A stretch of DNA of 64,000 nt from a candidate division WOR-1 bacterium RIFOXYB2_FULL_42_35 (GTDB lineage Bacteria; Margulisbacteria; WOR-1; O2-12-FULL-45-9), in assembly GCA_001771545.1 (NCBI GenBank), contig MEUC01000005.1, positions 2,379-66,378 on the forward strand, written 5' to 3'. This document shows, one piece after another, positions 6,693-15,137 of this stretch. The position numbers were made by a program, and so were the translations under genes. The notes beneath the pieces are model-generated. The model did not search any database, had not been told where the DNA came from, and worked only from the letters and a program-made list of their open reading frames with translations. The first letter of the stretch is position 1, and every line of letters starts with the position of its first letter.

Positions 6693-9600
6693 TTACGCTT
6701 TTCGATGATAATCTTGCAACGCCTTAACATCAAAACCTTTTTTCTTCAGAGCATCAAGACCATTGACAGTGGCTCGGGCGCCAGAAATCGTCGTAATCAG
6801 CGGTACATTGTGCATCACGGCTAGTGAGCGGATTTTTGCTTCATCAATTTTAGTCTTCTTGCCCCCGGGAGTATTAATTAAAAAGGCAATCTCTCCTCTG
6901 TTAAGTAAATCAAGGATAGAGCCGGCTTCTTCATGAATTTTAGCTACGATTTTAACAGCGACCCCATTCTTCGTTAAAACCTTACCCGTTCCGGCCGTTG
7001 CTACAATACTATAACCAAGATCAACCAATCGTTTGGCAATCAAGATAATTGACCGTTTATCCTTATTTTTCACACTAACAAAAATCTGGCCGGATAAAGG
7101 GATCTTTTGACCTGCTGCTATCTGCGCCTTCATAAAAGCCCGGCCATAATCACTATCAATCCCCATAACCTCACCGGTTGATTTCATTTCCGGCCCCAAA
7201 ACAGCATCTGCACCAGGAAAACGATTAAAAGGAAAAACAGCTTCTTTAACCGCCACATGATCAATCTCAACTTCTTTTTCAATGCCTAACTGTTTCAAAG
7301 TTTTGCCAATCATCACCTTGGTAGCGATTTTGGCCCAGGGGATACCAGTTGCTTTACTGACAAAAGGAACTGTTCGGGAAGCGCGCGGGTTGACCTCTAA
7401 AACATACAAGGTGTCACCCTGAACTGCATATTGAATATTCATCAGGCCTTTAACTTTTAGCTCTTTTGCCAAGGCATAGGTTGATTTTTTTATCTCCTCG
7501 ATCATTTCTTCTGAGAGAGAAAAAGGCGGTATCGCACAAGCCGAATCGCCAGAATGAATGCCTGCTTCTTCAATATGCTCCATAATACCGCAGACAACGG
7601 TTTTTTTACCGTCAGAAACGGCATCAACATCAACCTCCAGGGCATCTTCAAGAAATTTGTCGACTAAAATTGGATGCTCAGGAGAGACATCAACTGCCCA
7701 ACCCATAAATTGCTCTAAAGACTTATCATCATAAACAATTTCCATGGCCCGACCACCAAGAACATAAGAAGGACGAACCAAAACCGGATAACCAATTCTT
7801 TTAGCCACCTTTTTGGCTTCAACATAAGATCTAGCCATGCCATTGGCCGGTTGTCTTAATTTTAATTTTTTAAGGATCCGTTGAAAAAGCTGCCGATCTT
7901 CCGCTCGATCAATACTTTTCGGCGAAGTCCCAATAATCTTGCCCCCGGCTTTTTCGATCGCAAAAGCCAAATTAAGCGGGGTCTGACCACCAAATTGCAC
8001 AATAATCCCGTCTGGTTTTTCTTTTTCAATAATATGGACAACGTCTTCTTTGGTTAAGGGTTCAAAATACAATTTATCAGAAGTATCGTAGTCAGTTGAA
8101 ACTGTTTCCGGATTGGAATTGACCATGATTGATTCGATCCCTTCTTCTCTCAAAGCAAAAGAAGCGTGGCAACAACAGTAATCAAATTCAATTCCTTGAC
8201 CAATCCGGTTCGGCCCTCCGCCCAAAATCAGCACCTTTTTCCTCTTCGACGGTTTTGATTCACACTCTGATTCATAAGTTGAATAATAATATGGGGTATA
8301 AGCGGGAAACTCGGCCGCACAAGTATCAACCAACTTATAAACAGGAAAAATCTTTTGCTCAACCCGTATTTTTTTGATCTCGTCTTCTGTCTTGCCCTGC
8401 AAATGAGCAATCTGGCAATCAGAAAAACCGAGTTGCTTCATTTCAAACAAAGACAGATCCTCCCGAGGAGCTTCAAGGATCTGCTTCATATTTTCTAAGA
8501 ACCAGGGGTCAACATGGGTTAACTTATAAAGCTCATCAATTGACATGCCCTGTTCAATCGCATGGCTAATATAAAAAATTCTCCGATCATTCGGTTTGCG
8601 TAAATTCTCAATAAGTTTATCCGGCTCAATAAAAGATTTACCATCATTACCCAAACCAAAACGCCCAACTTCTAGAGACCTTAATCCTTTTTGCAAAGCT
8701 TCTTTAAAGGTTCGACCAATTGCCATCGTCTCTCCAACAGACTTCATGGAAGTACCCAACACCGCTTCAGCATCTTTAAATTTTTCAAAAGTAAAACGCG
8801 GAATTTTTACAACACAGTAATCAATGGTTGGCTCAAAAGAAGCCGGGGTTTCTTTGGTGATATCATTCCTAATTTCATCCAACGTGTATCCAACTGATAA
8901 CTTCGCCGCGAACTTAGCAATAGGAAAACCTGTCGCTTTAGAGGCTAAGGCAGAGGAACGGGAAACACGTGGATTCATTTCAATAATAATCATGCGGCCA
9001 TCTTTAGGATTAACCGCAAATTGGATATTAGAACCGCCTGTCTCAACCCCAATCTCACGAATACAACGAATCGAAGCATCTCTCATAATTTGATACTCTT
9101 TGTCAGTTAAAGTCTGCGCTGGTGCAACAGTAATAGAATCTCCGGTATGAATACCCATAGCATCAAAGTTTTCAATCGAACAGACAATTACCACGTTGTC
9201 ATTTTTATCCCGCATTACTTCCAGCTCGAATTCTTTCCAGCCGGTTAAATCTTCCTCAATTAAAACTTCATGGGTTGGGGATAACTCTTGGCCATATTTC
9301 ACTATGCGCTCATATTCTTCTTCTGTGGTGGCAATCCCAGAGCCGGTACCTCCTAAGGTGAAACTAGGACGGATAATAGCCGGGAGTTTAACATACTCAA
9401 GCAACTCTTCAGCTTGCTTCCAAGTCTTAGCGGTACCACTGCGAGGCAAATCGATCTTGGCCTTTTTCATGGCGTCCTTAAATTGTTGTCGATCTTCCGC
9501 TTTTTTGATCGCCTTAAGGTCAGCCCCAATCATCTCCACACCAAATTTTTCTAAAACACCCATTTCTGCCACAGCAACTGCAGTATTTAAACCTGTTTGG

Positions 9601-9875
9601 CCCCCCAGTGTCGGCAGCAAAGCATCTGGCCGTTCTTTCTCAATAATTTTAGCGACAATTTCTGGGGTAACGGGTTCAATATAAGTGCGATCAGCCATTT
9701 CCGGATCAGTCATAATAGTGGCTGGATTAGAATTAACTAGAATAACTTCATAGCCCTCTTCTCTCAAAGCCTTGCAAGCCTGGGAACCAGAATAGTCAAA
9801 TTCACAAGCCTGACCGATTATAATCGGACCAGCACCAATGATCATGATTTTTTTTATGTCTGTTCGTTTAGGCAC
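6693..9875 (-). CDS. carB: Carbamoyl-phosphate synthase large subunit
   Basis: 1060 aa. Two ATP-grasp halves, [24 protein letters not shown], and a C-terminal MGS-like domain. Confidence 0.95.
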
Positions 9876-9891
9876 GGGAAACCTCCGGTTT

Positions 9892-9943
9892 CAATGACAA
9901 ATTAAAAATGTCAAATGACAAATGTATGTATGCCTTCGGCATG
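9892..9943. repeat. Repeat R1: conserved core CAATGACAAATTAAAAATGTCAAATGACAAATG plus GC hairpin ATGCC-TTC-GGCAT
   Basis: Shares a 25-nt block with R4 and a core plus covarying hairpin with R2 and R3. Lies between carB start and the four-helix-bundle gene stop. Confidence 0.7.
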
Positions 9944-9947
9944 TTAG

Positions 9948-10298
9948 TTATAGACTCCCTCTAGCTTTATTCGCAATCGAACTTAAAATCTTCATTAATT
10001 CATGTGATTCCTGGATCAAGTCATCCAAATTATCTTCTTTATAAATAATCTGCGCTTTTTTAATCAATCTCAACCAATATCTGGTCTCCCTAGCTTCTTT
10101 CCTTGAGATAATTACCTTATTTATAAAATCTCTCTTGGTCGCCGCTCCATCAGCCTCTTCCATGTTAGCCCCAATCGAAGTGCCTGACCTAACCAACTGT
10201 CTAGCTAATACATTTCCAGACTGAGTTTTCGGCAACTTGTCCGCAAACTTAAGTATGCGAACTCCAAATTCCAAGGTTCTATCTTGTATGTCCACCGC
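9948..10298 (-). CDS. Four-helix-bundle protein (23S rRNA intervening-sequence protein / Avd-like family, PF05635)
   Basis: ARQLVRSGTSIGANMEEADGAATKRDFINKVIISRKEARETRYWLRLI matches the family signature (RSAxSIxxNIAEG...KdFi...iArgS..E..ywL). The likely start is a GTG with GAGGAGG RBS 8 nt upstream (the track ORF starts at a TTG at 10322). Confidence 0.65.
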   Translation of the reverse strand, partial: AVDIQDRTLEFGVRILKFADKLPKTQSGNVLARQLVRSGTSIGANMEEADGAATKRDFINKVIISRKEARETRYWLRLIKKAQIIYKEDNLDDLIQESHELMKILSSIANKARGSL

Positions 10299-10316
10299 GA
10301 CCACCTCCTCAACCAA

Positions 10317-10366
10317 TGTCAAATTTCAAATGACAAATGTCAAATGAATGTGTGCCTCCGGCACAT
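10317..10366. repeat. Repeat R2: core GACAAATGTCAAATGAATGTGT plus GC hairpin GTGCC-TCC-GGCAC
   Basis: Same core-then-hairpin layout as R1. It forms an inverted-repeat pair with R3 across the TIR gene. Confidence 0.7.
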
Positions 10367-10369
10367 TAT

Positions 10370-11053
10370 TTACAAATCTCTTAAAACCTGATGACCTGAT
10401 CCCGTTAATCTCCATGTCAAAGAATCAGTCATTCCATTATAAAAGCCAATGCTCCCACCTTCTTCTATTAGATCATCATACATCAGTTTATTCGTCGCTA
10501 AGTTATATTCCTTCACAGATACCCCCAGAAATTTCTTCAAAACTTTCTGTGGCATTTCGGATTCATCAGCATTCACCAAAAGTTCAAGAATTTTTCTTTC
10601 ACTATCATTTAATTCCCTAGCCTCTCCCTTGTTCTGCTTTTTAATCCCTAAAGTAGCTTTAAATCTATCAACAATTTCTCTGATTACTTTTTTTGGATCT
10701 TTGCTCCTGTCCAAACATCTAAACTGCTCTCTCCCCTCAGTGCGGCCAAGAGGAGATACCCCATCCTCAACAATAGCAATAATTTGTTTTTTTGCATTAT
10801 CGGCACGTCCAATTTCTTGTTGGACGATCTGAGACTTATGCGCATGAAAAGTATACAAAACAACAAAAATATCCTTAGAATTGATATGGTTATTTAATTT
10901 GTCAGATAATTCTTTATCTCCCTCAGCATTCTCTGGTCGTTCCGCAATATATAAATCAATTCCCATACCGCAAAAGGCAGAAAACAATAAATCAATATAG
11001 ATTTGATCTTCTTCATGATTGCTATGGCTTAAAAAAGCTGTTTTATTTTTCAT
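10370..11053 (-). CDS. TIR-domain protein with C-terminal winged-helix DNA-binding domain
   Basis: N-terminal part AFLSHS...IDLYIAE...FVVLYTFHAHKSQIVQQEIGRA...IIAIVEDGVSP follows the TIR betaA-alphaA-betaB...betaC-alphaC pattern with a conserved Glu. C-terminal part SERKILELL...LGVSVKEYNLATNKLMYDDLIEEGG...WRLTGSG is wHTH-like. Start taken as MKNKTAF (the track ORF extends to an ATG at 11080 inside the R3 hairpin). Confidence 0.55.
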   Translation of the reverse strand: MKNKTAFLSHSNHEEDQIYIDLLFSAFCGMGIDLYIAERPENAEGDKELSDKLNNHINSKDIFVVLYTFHAHKSQIVQQEIGRADNAKKQIIAIVEDGVSPLGRTEGREQFRCLDRSKDPKKVIREIVDRFKATLGIKKQNKGEARELNDSERKILELLVNADESEMPQKVLKKFLGVSVKEYNLATNKLMYDDLIEEGGSIGFYNGMTDSLTWRLTGSGHQVLRDL

Positions 11054-11063
11054 ACAATAGTAC

Positions 11064-11113
11064 GTCGCGCAGCGACACATTCATTTGACATTTTTAATTT
11101 GACATTTGTCATT
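11064..11113. repeat. Repeat R3 (inverted relative to R1/R2): GC hairpin GTCGC-GCA-GCGAC plus core ACATTCATTTGACATTTTTAATTTGACATTTGTCATT
   Basis: Its 32-nt core differs from R4 at one position. It abuts the carA stop codon and overlaps the 5' end of the TIR gene. Confidence 0.7.
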
Positions 11114-12248
11114 ATTTATCCATTAACCTCGTAAATTCCTTAAATAGGTAGGTTGCGTCGTGTGGCCCTGGTCCAGCCTCCGGGTGATACTGAACAGAAA
11201 AGATCGGCAAGTCCTTATGCCGCATTCCTTCAACTGTTTGATCATTTAAATTAATATGGGTTAGTTCAACTTGTTTATCAGGGATGGAATCGATATCAAC
11301 AGCAAAACCATGATTCTGCGCCGTGATAGCAACTTTTCTGGTTTTTAAATCCATAACCGGCTGGTTGCCGCCATGATGACCAAACTTTAATTTATAAGTC
11401 TTGCCACCAAAAGCTAAGCCTAAAAGTTGATTGCCCAAACAAATACCAAAAATTGGCGCTTGGCCAATTAATTTTTTAATGTTTTTAATCGCATAGGTCA
11501 CAGCCGCAGGATCAGCCGGACCATTGGAGAGAAAAATCCCATCAGGCTTCATAGCCAGAACATCTTCGGCTGGAGTTTTAGCTGGGACAACCGTAACTCT
11601 ACAACCAACCCTCTCCAAATGATGCAAAATACTAAACTTAATCCCAAAATCATACGCCACAACATTGTATTTCAATTTCGGATTTTTACCTTCATTTGAC
11701 ATTTTTAATTTGTCATTTGTCATTCTAGCGAAGCTAGTCTCATTCCACACATATGGTTCTTTACAGGTCACAACTTTTACTAGATCAACACCCTCGACCC
11801 CAGGACAAGTCTTGGCTTTTTCAATCAAGCTCTTTTTAACAGTATCAACCGTTGAGATTACTCCCTTTAAAGCCCCTTGGGTGCGCAACTTTTTAGTTAA
11901 GGCTCGAGTATCTATCCCTGCAATGGCAATAATGCCATGTTTTTTGAGATATTCTGATAAGGTTTGAGTGCTCCGATAGTTAGAAGCAACCACACTGTTT
12001 TCTCGGACGACAAAACCTTCCACTTGTGGGATTGGTGACTCAATATCCTCTTCATTAACGCCATAATTACCAATAAGAGGATAAGTCATAGTAACAATTT
12101 GGCCTTTATAGGAAGGATCGGTGAGAATTTCTTGGTAACCAGTTAGCGAGGTATTGAAAACAATTTCTCCACTCTTTTCGGTTTCGGCCCCAAAAGACTG
12201 TCCCTGGAAAACTGTACCATCTTCAAGTGCGAGGATTGCTTTTGTCAC
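11112..12248 (-). CDS. carA: Carbamoyl-phosphate synthase small subunit (glutamine amidotransferase)
   Basis: [39 protein letters not shown] and [11 protein letters not shown] are CarA class-I GATase hallmarks. Confidence 0.95.
11690..11734. repeat. Repeat R4: in-frame copy of the R-family core inside the carA inter-domain linker (encodes [12 protein letters not shown])
   Basis: CATTTGACATTTTTAATTTGTCATTTGTCATT followed by CTAGC-GAA-GCTAG; it matches R3 at 31 of 32 positions. Confidence 0.65.
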
Positions 12249-12299
12249 ATGTTTTTACCTTAGTTATTATAACGAAAATTCGAGGTGGTCGCAAGGTGG

Positions 12300-12346
12300 G
12301 AAAAAACAGAAAAACACCCCCTCTCTTTAGGGGGTCGTGGTTTTAT
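12300..12346 (-). terminator. Rho-independent terminator downstream of the UPF0182 gene
   Basis: Minus-strand reading: CCCCC-taaagaga-GGGGG stem followed by TGTTTTTCTGTTTTTT. Confidence 0.65.
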
Positions 12347-12365
12347 GTGAGCGGGGTGAGTTAGA

Positions 12366-15137
12366 TTACTTCGCCAAATCTTGCAACAGCTTCTTCAGCT
12401 CATTAAGCTTTTCGCCATACGAACCAAAATTGCCTTGCTTTAAATTGGACTGCGCTTGATCAAAAACATTAAGGGCTTTTTGGGCCAGTTCTTTCGGGTT
12501 TAAATATGACTCTGTCTTCTCTTCTAATTTAACCGAGCTTCTCACCCGACCGGAAAAGACTTGAGAAAAAGCCGAGTCCAAGGATTCTCCCATAGCCACA
12601 TTATTACCATAAACCACAATTATTCTTTTTAACTGGGGCAGCTCCCCTGAAGAAGCCTCTAGATAAACCGGCTCAACATAAACAATGGAGTTTTTGATCG
12701 GAATGGCTAAAAGATTACCGCGAATAACTCGTGAACCACCTTGCCCCCACAGCGTAAACTGCTGAGAGATTTCTGTTTGTTGGTCAATCCTAGCCTCAAC
12801 CTGCATCGGCCCGTAAACCAATTTATCTTTAGGAAATTTATAAACAATTAACTTGCCATAATTAGGCATGTCTGAGCGGCCAGCCAACCAAGCAATCATG
12901 TTATCTTTATTATTAGGAGTAAACGGCAACATCAAAAGAAATTCTTCTCTTTTTTCTTTTGGCAGCCTCATTATTATATAGTAGGCTTCCATCAGCTGTT
13001 CATTGCCGGCATAAATTTCTTTGGGAATATTCCACAGGTCTTCTTGGTTGTAATAAACCTGGGGTTCATCCATATGGAAAGTTGCATACTTGTGTGCCTG
13101 GATCATAAATAAGTCGTAAGGATAACGAAGATGTTTCTTTAAGTCCTCGGGCATTTGAGCGAAAGATTTAAAAAGACCAGGATAAATCTTCTGGTAAGTC
13201 TTGGCCAAAGGATCAGCAGCATCAATAATATAAAAATCAACACTACCGTCATAAGCATTAACAACCGCCTTGACCGAGTTGCGAATATAGTTGAAGCGAG
13301 CGTAGCTTGTTCCGGTTGGGTCGGAATAGGGATAAAGATTAGAAGTTGTGTAAGCATCCTGAATCCAATAAAGTTGACCTTTGGAGATTACCAAATAAGG
13401 ATCACTGTCGTAGCTTAGAAAAGGCGCAATCGTTTTTACTCGGCCAGCGATTGAGCGGTTAAACATAATGCGGCTATCTTTGGTAATATAATCGGTTAGC
13501 AAGATTTTTAGGTCGGAGAAATTAATCGCAAAGGCCAAGCGCCGCAAGAAAGAACTAATTTGCACCCCACCCTTGCCTTGATAGGTTGAATAGACATTGC
13601 TGTCCCCTTTAGGATAATCAAATTCTTTTTCCTTGGTTTTTACAAAAACATAATTATCAGATTCTTCGCCATAATAGATCTCTGGCCGCTCAATCTTCAA
13701 ATCAGTCGAACTAACTGGCGGAATGTCTTTAACCAACAGATTAGGCAAACCATCGGAAGTCTTTTCATTTACAGGAGAGAGACAAACCCCATAACCATGG
13801 GTAAAACTCAAATGCTGGTTAACCCAGTTTTGAGCCTTGGCCGGTAGTTTAGAAATTTTTAGCTCTCGAGGAGAGAGCATGACTTCTTGATATTTGCCAT
13901 TAATTTGATAACGGTCAACATCAACATCAGCAAAGTCATAATAGAGCCGAATCCCTTGCAACTGATTGTAAGTTTTTTTGATCGGCCGCGGATCCCACAA
14001 CCTGATATTACTAATAGTTTGGGTGTTGCGACGCAAGTCCGCAAGAGAAAGGTCCTGTTCTGCCGCGAATTCTTTTTCTTCAATATTATCTAAGCCATAG
14101 GCTTGGCGAGTAAATTTAATGCCGTTGGCGATATAGGGGGACTCCATAGAAATCTCATTGGGTTTTACTTGTAGATTTTGAATAAAGGCCGGATAAATTC
14201 CCCCCATCACAACAGCAACAACTAAGTAAGTAGCCGCACCAACCAGCGGAAGCTTATAATCCTTTTGAAAAATATTGATCAAGAAAAGTGCTGACAGGAC
14301 AAATAAAACCAAGATTTGCAGATTGTAGCCCAACAACTGGGCGTTAACATCAGTATAGCCGGCACCAAAAACTATTCCACGGGCAGAGTAAAGAATTTCT
14401 AATCTTCCTAACCATAAACCCCAAGCAAACACTCCCGTCAATAAGGCCAAAAGTAATGCTAAATGGGCCTTCACCCCTCTAGCGAAAGAAACTTCAACTT
14501 GCTCAAGAGAAAAACCATTCTTGGTAAAATATATCCAGAGTGCAGCTAAACCAGAGATCATTAGCGCAGACATGATAAAACCTTGGATAAATTTCAATAA
14601 CGGGAATTGAAAAACATAAAAGCCAATATCCTTATTAAAAATAGGATCGGCAATCCCAAAGGAAGAAGCATTCAAGGCCTTGAGCACAACTTGCCATTGA
14701 GTTAAAGCAGACAGCCCCATAAAGAGAGCAACAACCAGGATCCCCAGCAACCAAAAAAGATTAGCCCTATCATGCCCTTCCGGTTGCGGCCCAACGTCTA
14801 TGATCTGGTCGTCATCATTATCGTTAGCTCCCCCCCCTTCTCCAAAAAGCTGCTCAATCATTTTTTGGATGTCAGGAGATTTTCTCCTAACCCCATTTTT
14901 TTTCAATCCTTTGGTCAAACGATTGGCAACATAAATATTAACCGCCGCAATTACCAAGAAAAGCAGGCCAAAAGCTAAGCCGGTTAAAACTTTGGCTTTA
15001 AGATTGATCCAAAAAATTGCCGAAAAACCCAGATTTTGCAGCCAGAGAAAGTTCGGATAAATAGAAATCAGGGCAGAAATAAGACTCCAAACAATAAAAA
15101 CCAAAATGATTGTAATAGCCAGGGGAAAGCGTCGCAT
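12366..15137 (-). CDS. UPF0182-family large membrane protein (COG1615-like)
   Basis: 923 aa. An N-terminal ~300 aa with multiple TM helices is followed by a large soluble domain. Size and architecture fit the UPF0182 family. Confidence 0.45.
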   Translation of the reverse strand: MRRFPLAITIILVFIVWSLISALISIYPNFLWLQNLGFSAIFWINLKAKVLTGLAFGLLFLVIAAVNIYVANRLTKGLKKNGVRRKSPDIQKMIEQLFGEGGGANDNDDDQIIDVGPQPEGHDRANLFWLLGILVVALFMGLSALTQWQVVLKALNASSFGIADPIFNKDIGFYVFQFPLLKFIQGFIMSALMISGLAALWIYFTKNGFSLEQVEVSFARGVKAHLALLLALLTGVFAWGLWLGRLEILYSARGIVFGAGYTDVNAQLLGYNLQILVLFVLSALFLINIFQKDYKLPLVGAATYLVVAVVMGGIYPAFIQNLQVKPNEISMESPYIANGIKFTRQAYGLDNIEEKEFAAEQDLSLADLRRNTQTISNIRLWDPRPIKKTYNQLQGIRLYYDFADVDVDRYQINGKYQEVMLSPRELKISKLPAKAQNWVNQHLSFTHGYGVCLSPVNEKTSDGLPNLLVKDIPPVSSTDLKIERPEIYYGEESDNYVFVKTKEKEFDYPKGDSNVYSTYQGKGGVQISSFLRRLAFAINFSDLKILLTDYITKDSRIMFNRSIAGRVKTIAPFLSYDSDPYLVISKGQLYWIQDAYTTSNLYPYSDPTGTSYARFNYIRNSVKAVVNAYDGSVDFYIIDAADPLAKTYQKIYPGLFKSFAQMPEDLKKHLRYPYDLFMIQAHKYATFHMDEPQVYYNQEDLWNIPKEIYAGNEQLMEAYYIIMRLPKEKREEFLLMLPFTPNNKDNMIAWLAGRSDMPNYGKLIVYKFPKDKLVYGPMQVEARIDQQTEISQQFTLWGQGGSRVIRGNLLAIPIKNSIVYVEPVYLEASSGELPQLKRIIVVYGNNVAMGESLDSAFSQVFSGRVRSSVKLEEKTESYLNPKELAQKALNVFDQAQSNLKQGNFGSYGEKLNELKKLLQDLAK

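Follow-up and report, generated by a model that had tools for sequence, protein, structure and literature searches.

In the 64,000-nt stretch of candidate division WOR-1 DNA analyzed here (the window), the two genes for carbamoyl-phosphate synthase, carA and carB, are separated by a segment that contains one gene for a TIR-domain protein and one gene for a four-helix-bundle (4HB) protein and that is bounded by inverted arrays of a heptanucleotide. All genes across 6.7–15 kb of the window are encoded on the minus strand, namely UPF0182, carA, the TIR open reading frame (ORF), the 4HB ORF, and carB. The small subunit gene carA (11112–12248) was recognized by its ORF and by the Pfam domains CPSase_sm_chain and GATase, and its C-terminus was compared with the uninterrupted sites of relatives. 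The large subunit gene carB (6693–9875) is intact according to its ORF and Pfam domains. Between them, the TIR gene (10370–11053) encodes 227 amino acids, and the 4HB gene (9948–10295), which most likely starts with a GTG at 10295, encodes a protein of 115 amino acids that belongs to PF05635/TIGR02436 (S23p, Avd-like). The identical locus is present in five assemblies, including GCA_001772415.1 (METW01000005.1), a Rifle-aquifer WOR-1/Saganbacteria metagenome-assembled genome (MAG).

Comparison with relatives showed that the segment between carA and carB is an insertion. Uninterrupted, overlapping carA/carB genes were found in L211, L213, L216, and L214 (L-numbers denote comparison loci that were fetched from genomes and metagenomes), with CarA identities of 88%, 80%, 78%, and 77%, respectively, and L213 shares the UPF0182-carA synteny with the window. 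The overlapped form in these relatives reads ...GTGCCTAA / ATGCCTAA..., and the overlap is 8–17 nt long, so the split is truly unusual for the lineage. Alignment with L211 delimited an insert of 1,241 bp (9877–11117, minus strand). Thus, the first-pass annotation, which had described carA and carB as split by about 1.2 kb with two same-strand genes and had suggested searching relatives for an uninterrupted pair, was right on the split, and the search was successful.

The insertion point lies inside the carA/carB overlap, 1 nt upstream of the carB GTG. L211 reads ...ATGGAT|CGTGCCTAA, and the window reads ...ATGGAT, followed by the insert and CGTGCC. The last two codons of carA are replaced by a lysine codon and a stop codon from the insert. 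At the empty sites, the carB start lies within carA. The right-end tail of the insert (GAAACCGGAGGTTTCC, 9877–9892, minus strand) is absent from the empty sites and bears a GGAGG Shine-Dalgarno (SD) motif (9882–9886), which is located 6 nt before the carB GTG. The GC content of the insert is 36.6%, compared with 39.7% in the window. Upstream of carA, a consensus scan yielded a sole good sigma-70-like promoter match (TTGCGA-17-TATAAT, 12266–12294, minus strand), and the same scan found none comparable on the minus strand inside the insert, which makes co-transcription of the insert with carA probable. A search of Rfam with positions 9000–12500 at a permissive threshold gave no match, and no DNA similarity of the insert to phages was found.

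The insert carries three repeat arms. The core of each consists of exactly five tandem heptads with the consensus AATGWCA, in which TGACA and TGTCA are mutually reverse-complementary. The left arm, R3 (11079–11113, minus strand), reads AATGACA AATGTCA AATTAAA AATGTCA AATGAAT and overlaps the carA stop codon (TAATG). The middle arm, R2 (10315–10349, plus strand), is reversed relative to the genes and ends just 5′ of the ribosome-binding site of the 4HB gene. The right arm, R1 (9893–9927, plus strand), is likewise reversed. In both R1 and R2, the hairpin comes first and the reverse array second, and the whole lies between a stop codon and the ribosome-binding site that follows it. R3 and R2 are complementary at 85% over 46 nt, and R3 and R1 at 96% over 26 nt. 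The three copies of an AT-rich core that had been reported at first are therefore real, and their coordinates and the opposite orientation of R3 check out, but the core has turned out to be a heptad array and a fourth copy exists. This copy, R4 (11690–11724, minus strand), is a solo forward array of five heptads without a hairpin that lies in frame within carA and is identical to the R3 core at 31 of 32 positions.

The arrays are confined to a small part of the window. A search with the 32-nt core, allowing up to three mismatches, gave two matches, with 0.00 expected, and all 12 occurrences of AATGWCAAAT in the 64 kb lie within 9893–11724. All four window copies have exactly five heptads; long tandem runs of variable length, as in short tandemly repeated repetitive (STRR) sequences or free microsatellites, were not found among them. 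R4 encodes a peptide of 11–12 residues in the linker between the N-terminal domain and the GATase domain of CarA. Diverged versions of this peptide are present in several Saganbacteria relatives and absent in others, which marks R4 as an older solo insertion. Forward arrays resembling R4 were also observed in frame inside ORFs of relatives (L007 4911–4938, L015 6886–6913, L050 2721–2748, and L079 4283–4310; the host ORF in L007 runs off the contig end). Two simple readings of the arrays were rejected. A sigma-70 promoter with the TTGACA of the reverse orientation lacks a correctly spaced -10 element, and a leader peptide is not plausible, given that pure AATGACA arrays would be interrupted by a TGA in frame and that the ORF lacks conservation.

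Each of R1, R2, and R3 is accompanied by a GC hairpin with a stem of 5–6 bp and a 3-nt loop, which lies on the inner side, 1–2 nt past the heptads. The R1 hairpin (9930–9942, plus strand) is ATGCC-TTC-GGCAT, with a GAA loop on the gene strand. The R2 hairpin (10351–10365, plus strand), 5 nt past the TIR stop codon, is TGTGCC-TCC-GGCACA, with a GGA loop on the gene strand. The R3 hairpin (11064–11076, minus strand), 10 nt before the TIR start codon, is GTCGC-TGC-GCGAC (DNA fold z = -2.15). The window, L117, L205, and L208 share an identical hairpin 3′ of the 4HB gene (ATGCC-GAA-GGCAT). Among 29 homologous arms, taken from the window and from related loci, the inner four stem pairs are 100% Watson-Crick, and at three pairs the stems switch between U-A and C-G, G-C and C-G, or C-G and G-C, with 27 double-change cells versus 8.6 in shuffles. 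The early remark that the stems differ and nevertheless pair thus holds, but the covariation test overstates the case, because the 29 arms had been picked for possessing a hairpin. The flanks (G)GTG...(C)ATTAT are conserved. The left and right hairpins of one element are usually unlike, so the conserved trait is local folding and not arm-to-arm identity. In some arms, a longer variant with a conserved CTTTCG/CGAAAG center (e.g., GTGCCTAACTTTCGTTCGGCAC) replaces the hairpin of 5 bp and 3 nt (L209 3858–3931, L011 1036–1070, and L014 7166–7200).

The assignment of the 4HB gene, already proposed from the sequence, was verified by profile matches to PF05635 (E 7.1e-21) and TIGR02436 (E 1.8e-28). 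The nearest solved relative of the protein is PDB entry 2RLD (E 4e-33), which comprises five chains, and more than 4,000 homologs were found at E below 1e-10 with the window protein as query. Avd is a nucleic-acid-binding cofactor. It is the accessory protein of diversity-generating retroelements (DGRs) and forms a homologous pentameric four-helix bundle (PMC10053308), and the S23p protein of Xanthomonas is a homopentameric toroid (PMC4990558).

The TIR protein matches ThsB_TIR (PF08937) with E 2.6e-9 and 37.8 bits (cut-off 21.2), and the ThsB models of PADLOC with E 4e-9. In an alignment-based AlphaFold2 (AF2) model, residues 1–140 have pLDDT values above 90, and Foldseek matched this TIR part to SPARTA TIR-APAZ, SARM1, AbTir, and SpbK. 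F7, S9, S74, and E80 are invariant among 25 homologs. Of the original description as a protein with a TIR domain and a winged helix-turn-helix (wHTH), the TIR domain was upheld by PF08937, by AF2/Foldseek, and by the invariant Glu80, but the wHTH was not confirmed: the C-terminal 80 residues match no Pfam family and have pLDDT values of 36–57. A BLASTP search of 5.8e9 proteins yielded a sole close relative, with 85% identity, which covers the C-terminal part as well. An exhaustive HMMER search yielded 218 TIR homologs at E <=1e-3, in which, save for one close relative, the TIR part alone was matched. The GC content of the TIR gene is 35%, versus 40–42% in the flanking genes. Like ThsB of the Thoeris system, the protein has a ThsB model match and the conserved Glu. 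Unlike in Thoeris, its gene has carA, the 4HB gene, and carB as neighbors, and ThsA is not present; within the locus, neither a ThsA-type effector (SIR2/Macro-SLOG or transmembrane (TM)) nor another defense gene adjoins it. The TIR gene would be captured cargo, possibly encoding an NADase.

Units of the same build occur at other gene junctions. The closest 4HB homologs, with identities of 70–80%, are located at purS-purQ|purL (L208, L209/L210, and L117), at iscS|iscU (L205), and upstream of carB (L206). At other junctions, the left arm adjoins the upstream stop codon, and the right arm ends shortly before the downstream ribosome-binding site. The minimal form, in L209, consists of stop codon, forward array, hairpin, 4HB gene, hairpin, reverse array, and ribosome-binding site. 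L208 has the three-arm layout of the window, with 16 nt in place of the TIR gene, and L117, L205, L212, and L215 have other ORFans in or beside this slot, for which no Pfam, PADLOC, or NCBIfam family was found. Gene-less "empty" units of forward array, one or two hairpins, and reverse array (105–130 nt) are present in L096, L014, L208, and others. In L096 and L208, such a unit is predicted to adopt a long, branched stem with GC hairpins at the tips (z about -5.5), unlike in L014 (z -1.5). The spacing of inverted array pairs falls into classes, i.e., 42–105 nt for empty pairs, about 380–550 nt for pairs with one 4HB gene, and larger distances with cargo. ORFs other than the 4HB gene that lie between array pairs are either ORFans or belong to housekeeping families (trigger factor, Fic, oxidoreductase, amidohydrolase), and the 4HB gene is the only protein-coding gene that recurs between the arms. 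Hence, the statement that inverted repeats with hairpins bound the TIR and 4HB genes is corroborated by empty and occupied sites and by like ends elsewhere, but the constant partner of the repeats is the 4HB gene and not the TIR gene, which the first-pass annotation had overlooked.

None of 40 related 4HB units lies within rRNA or has rRNA as a neighbor. In 5 of 40 metagenomic 4HB units, a co-oriented tRNA gene follows just downstream (L134 4388–4458, L140 1762–1832, L143 1414–1485, L145 1181–1251, and L163 1080–1150), in four cases at a distance of 40–75 nt and in L163 at about 380 nt. Three further observations concern the arrays themselves. In the Chlamydiae MAG NC_groundwater_819, at least five separate contigs each bear an inverted array unit that holds no gene (L008, L022, L025, L027, and L105); these units are nearly identical, read AATTTCAAATGTCAAATGAAT GACCAATGA...CCAATTGG..., and look like a burst of the empty form. 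Reverse arrays are translated as hydrophobic N-termini of the HLSFVICHLSF or HLSFDIFHLSF type in predicted secreted proteins (L084 6397–6424, L030 7651–7678, and L014 7131–7246), where the repeats seem to have been exapted as signal-peptide or TM coding sequence. Long STRR-like (AATGACA)n runs, with the same heptad as the fixed five-unit arrays of the sister phyla, occur in the Nostocales genera Nostoc, Calothrix, and Desmonostoc (loci L006, L021, L042, L043, L054, L077, L086, L089, L100, L109, and L118).

The carA|carB junction is occupied in a second synteny group as well. In this group, characterized by RRM-carA, L212 and L215 are occupied, and L214 and L216 are empty. The inserts in L212 and L215 contain a 4HB gene, AATKTCC arrays, and distinct 97-aa ORFans. 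The latter (L212 6199–6492 and L215 3294–3587) have a C-terminal hydrophobic helix and almost no mutual similarity, and could be either fast-evolving or replaced cargo. In L206, the 4HB gene is directly upstream of carB, and the contig begins just upstream. Its first 330 nt (1–330) hold at least five tandem 66-nt units, each with a forward heptad array (AATTACAAATGACAAATTTCAAATGTCAAATTAAGGA), upstream of 4HB-carB; this amplification may be real or an assembly artefact at the contig end. The window 4HB protein is 66% identical to the L212 carAB copy and 70–77% identical to the purQL and iscSU copies, so identity does not track the insertion site. Two independent gains at the carA|carB junction are more parsimonious than repeated deletions that would have restored the overlap exactly.

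4HB genes and heptad arrays were surveyed in two collections. A scan of JGI metagenomes with an alignment of 31 4HB sequences yielded at least 80 loci with 45–75% identity and GC contents of 33–66%. A scan of GTDB genomes with a DNA pattern of three heptads yielded at least 119 loci, many of them from Saganbacteria/Margulisiibacteriota, Nostocales, the candidate phyla radiation (CPR), and a single Chlamydiae MAG. The inverted-repeat score of the 150-nt flanks had a median of 16 for 71 4HB genes versus 8 for 162 control ORFs (Mann-Whitney p = 2.6e-23), and scores of at least 18 were reached by 38% of the 4HB genes versus 0.6% of the controls. Tandem arrays were found in 30% of the 4HB flanks versus 4% of the control flanks (odds ratio 9.5, p = 1e-12). 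Of the 39 arrays next to 4HB genes, 36 had a period of 7; the median number of self-similar copies was 4.4 (mostly 3.3–5.1). The heptad unit is lineage-specific (AATGWCA, AATKTCC, AATKACT, AATKCAA, AAGGCAA, AGAATTT, and others), and its period and inverted arrangement are retained. Co-orientation of 4HB genes with both neighbors did not differ significantly (68% vs 53%, p = 0.13). Heptad arrays and inverted ends thus appear to be a widespread and barely described hallmark of the 4HB gene family.

Taken together, we consider it probable that the insert is a selfish cassette of the S23p type, as known from rRNA intervening sequences (IVSs), that is lodged in an mRNA operon and carries the TIR gene as cargo. 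Four results point to this explanation: the empty and occupied sites, the sister units elsewhere, the enrichment of repeats in the flanks of 4HB genes, and the heptamers of Coxiella described below. The constant core of the cassette is the PF05635 4HB gene, and its ends are inverted arrays of about five AATGWCA heptads, followed on the inner side by a short GC hairpin and ATTAT. The layout in the window is forward arm, slot, reverse arm, 4HB gene, and reverse arm, in which the slot holds the orphan TIR gene and is empty in L208. As the cassette supplies the stop codon of carA and the SD motif of carB, and would be co-transcribed on the operon strand, the operon probably still works. The arms are predicted to pair in the transcript, R3 with R1, into an IVS-like stem, which by analogy with Coxiella would be a candidate target of RNase III; in the minimum free energy structure of the 1,271-nt transcript, R3 indeed pairs with R1, so that the arms enclose the entire insert, and the local GC hairpins are kept. 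The arrays most likely represent iterated sites for a pentameric 4HB protein, with one heptad per protomer. This predicted binding is suggested by the 4HB gene being the only gene that recurs between the arms, and by the differences between the arms, which are mostly G/T and A/T swaps and resemble the variation of a binding-site consensus.

The comparison with rRNA IVSs, which the first-pass annotation had not drawn, is central to this explanation. PF05635 comprises the S23p ORFs of rRNA IVSs, which have been called a "selfish element" (PMC4990558). The IVS of Coxiella is 428 nt long and contains an S23p ORF and a stem of 28-bp terminal inverted repeats for which cutting by RNase III was demonstrated by experiment; in its 5′ part, three to four tandem GACAGAT heptamers precede the ORF, and the 5′ RNase III cut is at the first repeat (PMC4990558). 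GACAGAT is one base off GACAAAT, the window heptad in that register. IVSs of Coxiella burnetii, Leptospira, Brucella, and Xanthomonas and rRNA insertions of CPR bacteria share with the window element a PF05635 ORF of about 115–125 aa, terminal inverted repeats able to form a stem, a higher AT content than the host, and a sporadic distribution that suggests mobility (PMC4990558; PMC11270868). The Coxiella IVS additionally shares the tandem heptamers directly before the ORF (three to four GACAGAT vs five AATGWCA heptads). Unlike the IVSs, the window element is located at the junction carA|carB of a protein-coding operon and not in a helix of 23S or 16S rRNA, has three arms rather than two plus an extra cargo gene, and gives a stop codon and an SD motif to its neighbors, and RNase III cleavage is a prediction here. 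Outside of rRNA, 23S_rRNA_IVP (PF05635) genes have been reported at cas loci, for instance at cmr3|cmr2 of Pleurocapsa (Zhang and Ye 2013, PMC3936711). There, as in the window, a 4HB gene separates two members of a single functional operon; a possible Cas-associated function was considered, and flanking repeats, hairpins, and empty or occupied sites were not described (PMC3936711). In the full-text literature, no paper was found that presents inverted heptad arrays as generally typical of PF05635 genes, and only the Coxiella heptamers and the remark on cas loci surfaced. The family-wide architecture thus appears to have been glimpsed so far in Coxiella only and to be otherwise undescribed in the searchable literature.

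Several results weigh against the IVS-type cassette. When occupied and empty sites are compared, the window junction proves to lack a target-site duplication. Among the called genes within 10 kb on either side, none for a transposase, integrase, or reverse transcriptase was detected, and the ORFs that array pairs enclose in about 210 fetched loci did not include one either. No array copy exists elsewhere in the 64-kb window beyond the carAB locus, and the window's own genome is absent among the matches listed in the scans of public collections. Within the locus, the arms are only 74–85% complementary over 46 nt. Mismatches between arms, mostly transversions, have no bias toward G-U pairs on the sense strand (42 vs 38), contrary to what strong selection for RNA pairing would produce. 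In the broader set of more distant 4HB genes, GC hairpins show no enrichment (16% vs 11–12%), so the hairpin is a trait of one sub-lineage. Lastly, a 4HB gene is present in 2 of the 119 array-pattern loci, among the matches listed, so arrays occur independently of 4HB genes too.

This last result fits the strongest alternative, which we regard as unlikely. According to this alternative, the arrays are cis-regulatory leader elements, i.e., A-rich modules of 5′-UTRs or intercistronic regions that end in an SD-like GAAGG, the 4HB protein is a trans-acting regulator, and the genes entered by recombination between dispersed arrays. In accordance with such a role, 13 of 26 forward arrays in Saganbacteria/Margulisiibacteriota loci are situated right where a same-strand ORF begins, the last letters of an array are often AATGAAGG, some 10 nt ahead of an ATG, and the mismatches between arms, as mentioned above, resemble variation within a binding-site consensus. 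TAACTGA heptamer repeats of Beggiatoaceae and cyanobacteria are likewise forward-oriented and located just upstream of start codons (PMC4679880). These repeats and the STRR repeats of Nostocales resemble the window arrays in being tandem heptamers that are mostly forward and upstream of start codons, but in the window the copies are essentially fixed at five, and inverted pairs with hairpins bracket one gene family. A leader function also does not explain that arrays occur in frame inside ORFs and reversed in signal-peptide regions, that the orientation of R1 and R2 ahead of their genes is the reverse, U-rich one, that empty inverted pairs exist without a gene, and that the occupied/empty polymorphism is sharply bounded.

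We consider it quite unlikely that the insert is a conventional miniature inverted-repeat transposable element (MITE) or mobile insertion cassette that was moved in trans by a transposase encoded elsewhere, with the 4HB and TIR genes as passengers. The inverted ends of about 50 nt, the insertion polymorphism, and the gene-less units of about 105–130 nt that fold as long hairpins would all be expected of such an element. MITEs, mobile insertion cassettes, foldback elements, and REPINs indeed share with the window element inverted ends and passenger genes without a transposase, and MITE-type elements have, like the related units, short gene-less derivatives that fold into long hairpins. However, unlike with MITEs and REPINs, there is no target-site duplication, neither a cognate transposase with such ends nor a REP-associated tyrosine transposase (RAYT) was found in any fetched locus, and the ends are built of tandem heptads in a near-fixed number (four to five). 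Furthermore, the 4HB gene is bracketed too consistently across phyla, with lineage-specific heptads, for a random passenger.

It is very improbable that both genes have long belonged to the carAB operon of this lineage by vertical inheritance and that the repeats are local intergenic duplications. In at least three other lineages (L206, L212, and L215), a 4HB gene does immediately precede carB, but the nearest relatives, with CarA identities of 88% and 80% and the same synteny, have an overlapping junction, the cargo varies among the occupied sites, the 4HB protein is closer to the purQ|purL and iscS|iscU copies than to the L212 carAB copy, and the identical arm type is present at other loci.

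Even less credit is due to single-strand transposition of the IS200/IS605 type via subterminal hairpins, as in palindrome-associated transposable elements (PATE), a mechanism that the first-pass annotation had named. Small GC hairpins with covarying stems do occur near both ends, and their loops are of the GNA/CGAAG type, which forms stable single-strand mini-hairpins. Yet the ends, with their arrays and hairpin flanks, are true inverted repeats and not same-strand direct copies, the hairpins are inside the arrays and not at cleavage sites, no TnpA (Y1 HUH) or TnpB is encoded within 10 kb on either side, and the junctions have no conserved tetra- or pentanucleotide target. The early interpretation of a mobile hairpin-ended cassette with a TIR gene was therefore partly right, and its mechanism was wrong. 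Its second proposal, that the repeats are operators for the putative C-terminal wHTH of the TIR protein, has almost nothing left to recommend it, although it would turn the gene into a self-regulated defense gene: arrays do flank the TIR gene and the TGACA/TGTCA half-sites are palindromic, but the orphan TIR protein has just one relative, of 85% identity, its wHTH has neither a Pfam match nor a confident model (pLDDT 36–57), and arrays and hairpins surround 4HB genes on dozens of unrelated contigs, with other cargo, in many genomes without this TIR protein.

Three other systems resemble the cassette in single features. DGRs encode the homologous 4HB protein Avd, but there is no reverse transcriptase and no pair of template and variable repeats within 10 kb on either side. 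The arms lack the GTTRRRY core sites of integron cassettes, and no integrase is encoded within the same distance. Rickettsia palindromic elements are short repeats inserted in frame into genes and tolerated as extra peptide segments. They are thus similar to R4 in carA, but have an unrelated sequence and are palindromes of about 100–150 bp rather than 35-nt heptad arrays.

S23p/PF05635 proteins are very numerous and include the DGR cofactor Avd, but the function of the stand-alone and IVS members has been unexplained since the early 1990s. At this locus and in its relatives, inverted arrays of some five heptads, in many cases together with a covarying GC hairpin, surround the 4HB genes, which move between operon junctions, apparently without disabling the operons, and can carry cargo. 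We tentatively propose, as a possibility rather than as the probable state of affairs, that S23p/PF05635 pentamers are sequence-specific partners of arrays of four to five heptads, with one protomer per heptad. Together they would form phylum-spanning cassettes without a conventional transposase that target transcribed junctions, namely stop/start overlaps within operons, the region ahead of tRNA genes, and the tips of rRNA helices. The cassettes would spare their hosts by providing stop codons and ribosome-binding sites or by excision with RNase III, would capture cargo such as TIR defense genes in a hairpin-bounded slot, and may move via an RNA intermediate with an Avd-like cofactor. If the sequence-specific partnership is true, the 30-year-old ORF of the rRNA IVSs would at last have a function. 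The heptad-array architecture connects rRNA IVSs with the "odd" 4HB genes of cas and biosynthetic operons and with intergenic heptamer repeats that had lacked an explanation. For annotation, the arrays account for the array-encoded peptide insert in CarA and for HLSFVICHLSF-type segments in predicted signal peptides. For the biology of these bacteria, the cassette is a candidate new route by which orphan defense-type genes like that for the TIR protein may enter core metabolic operons.

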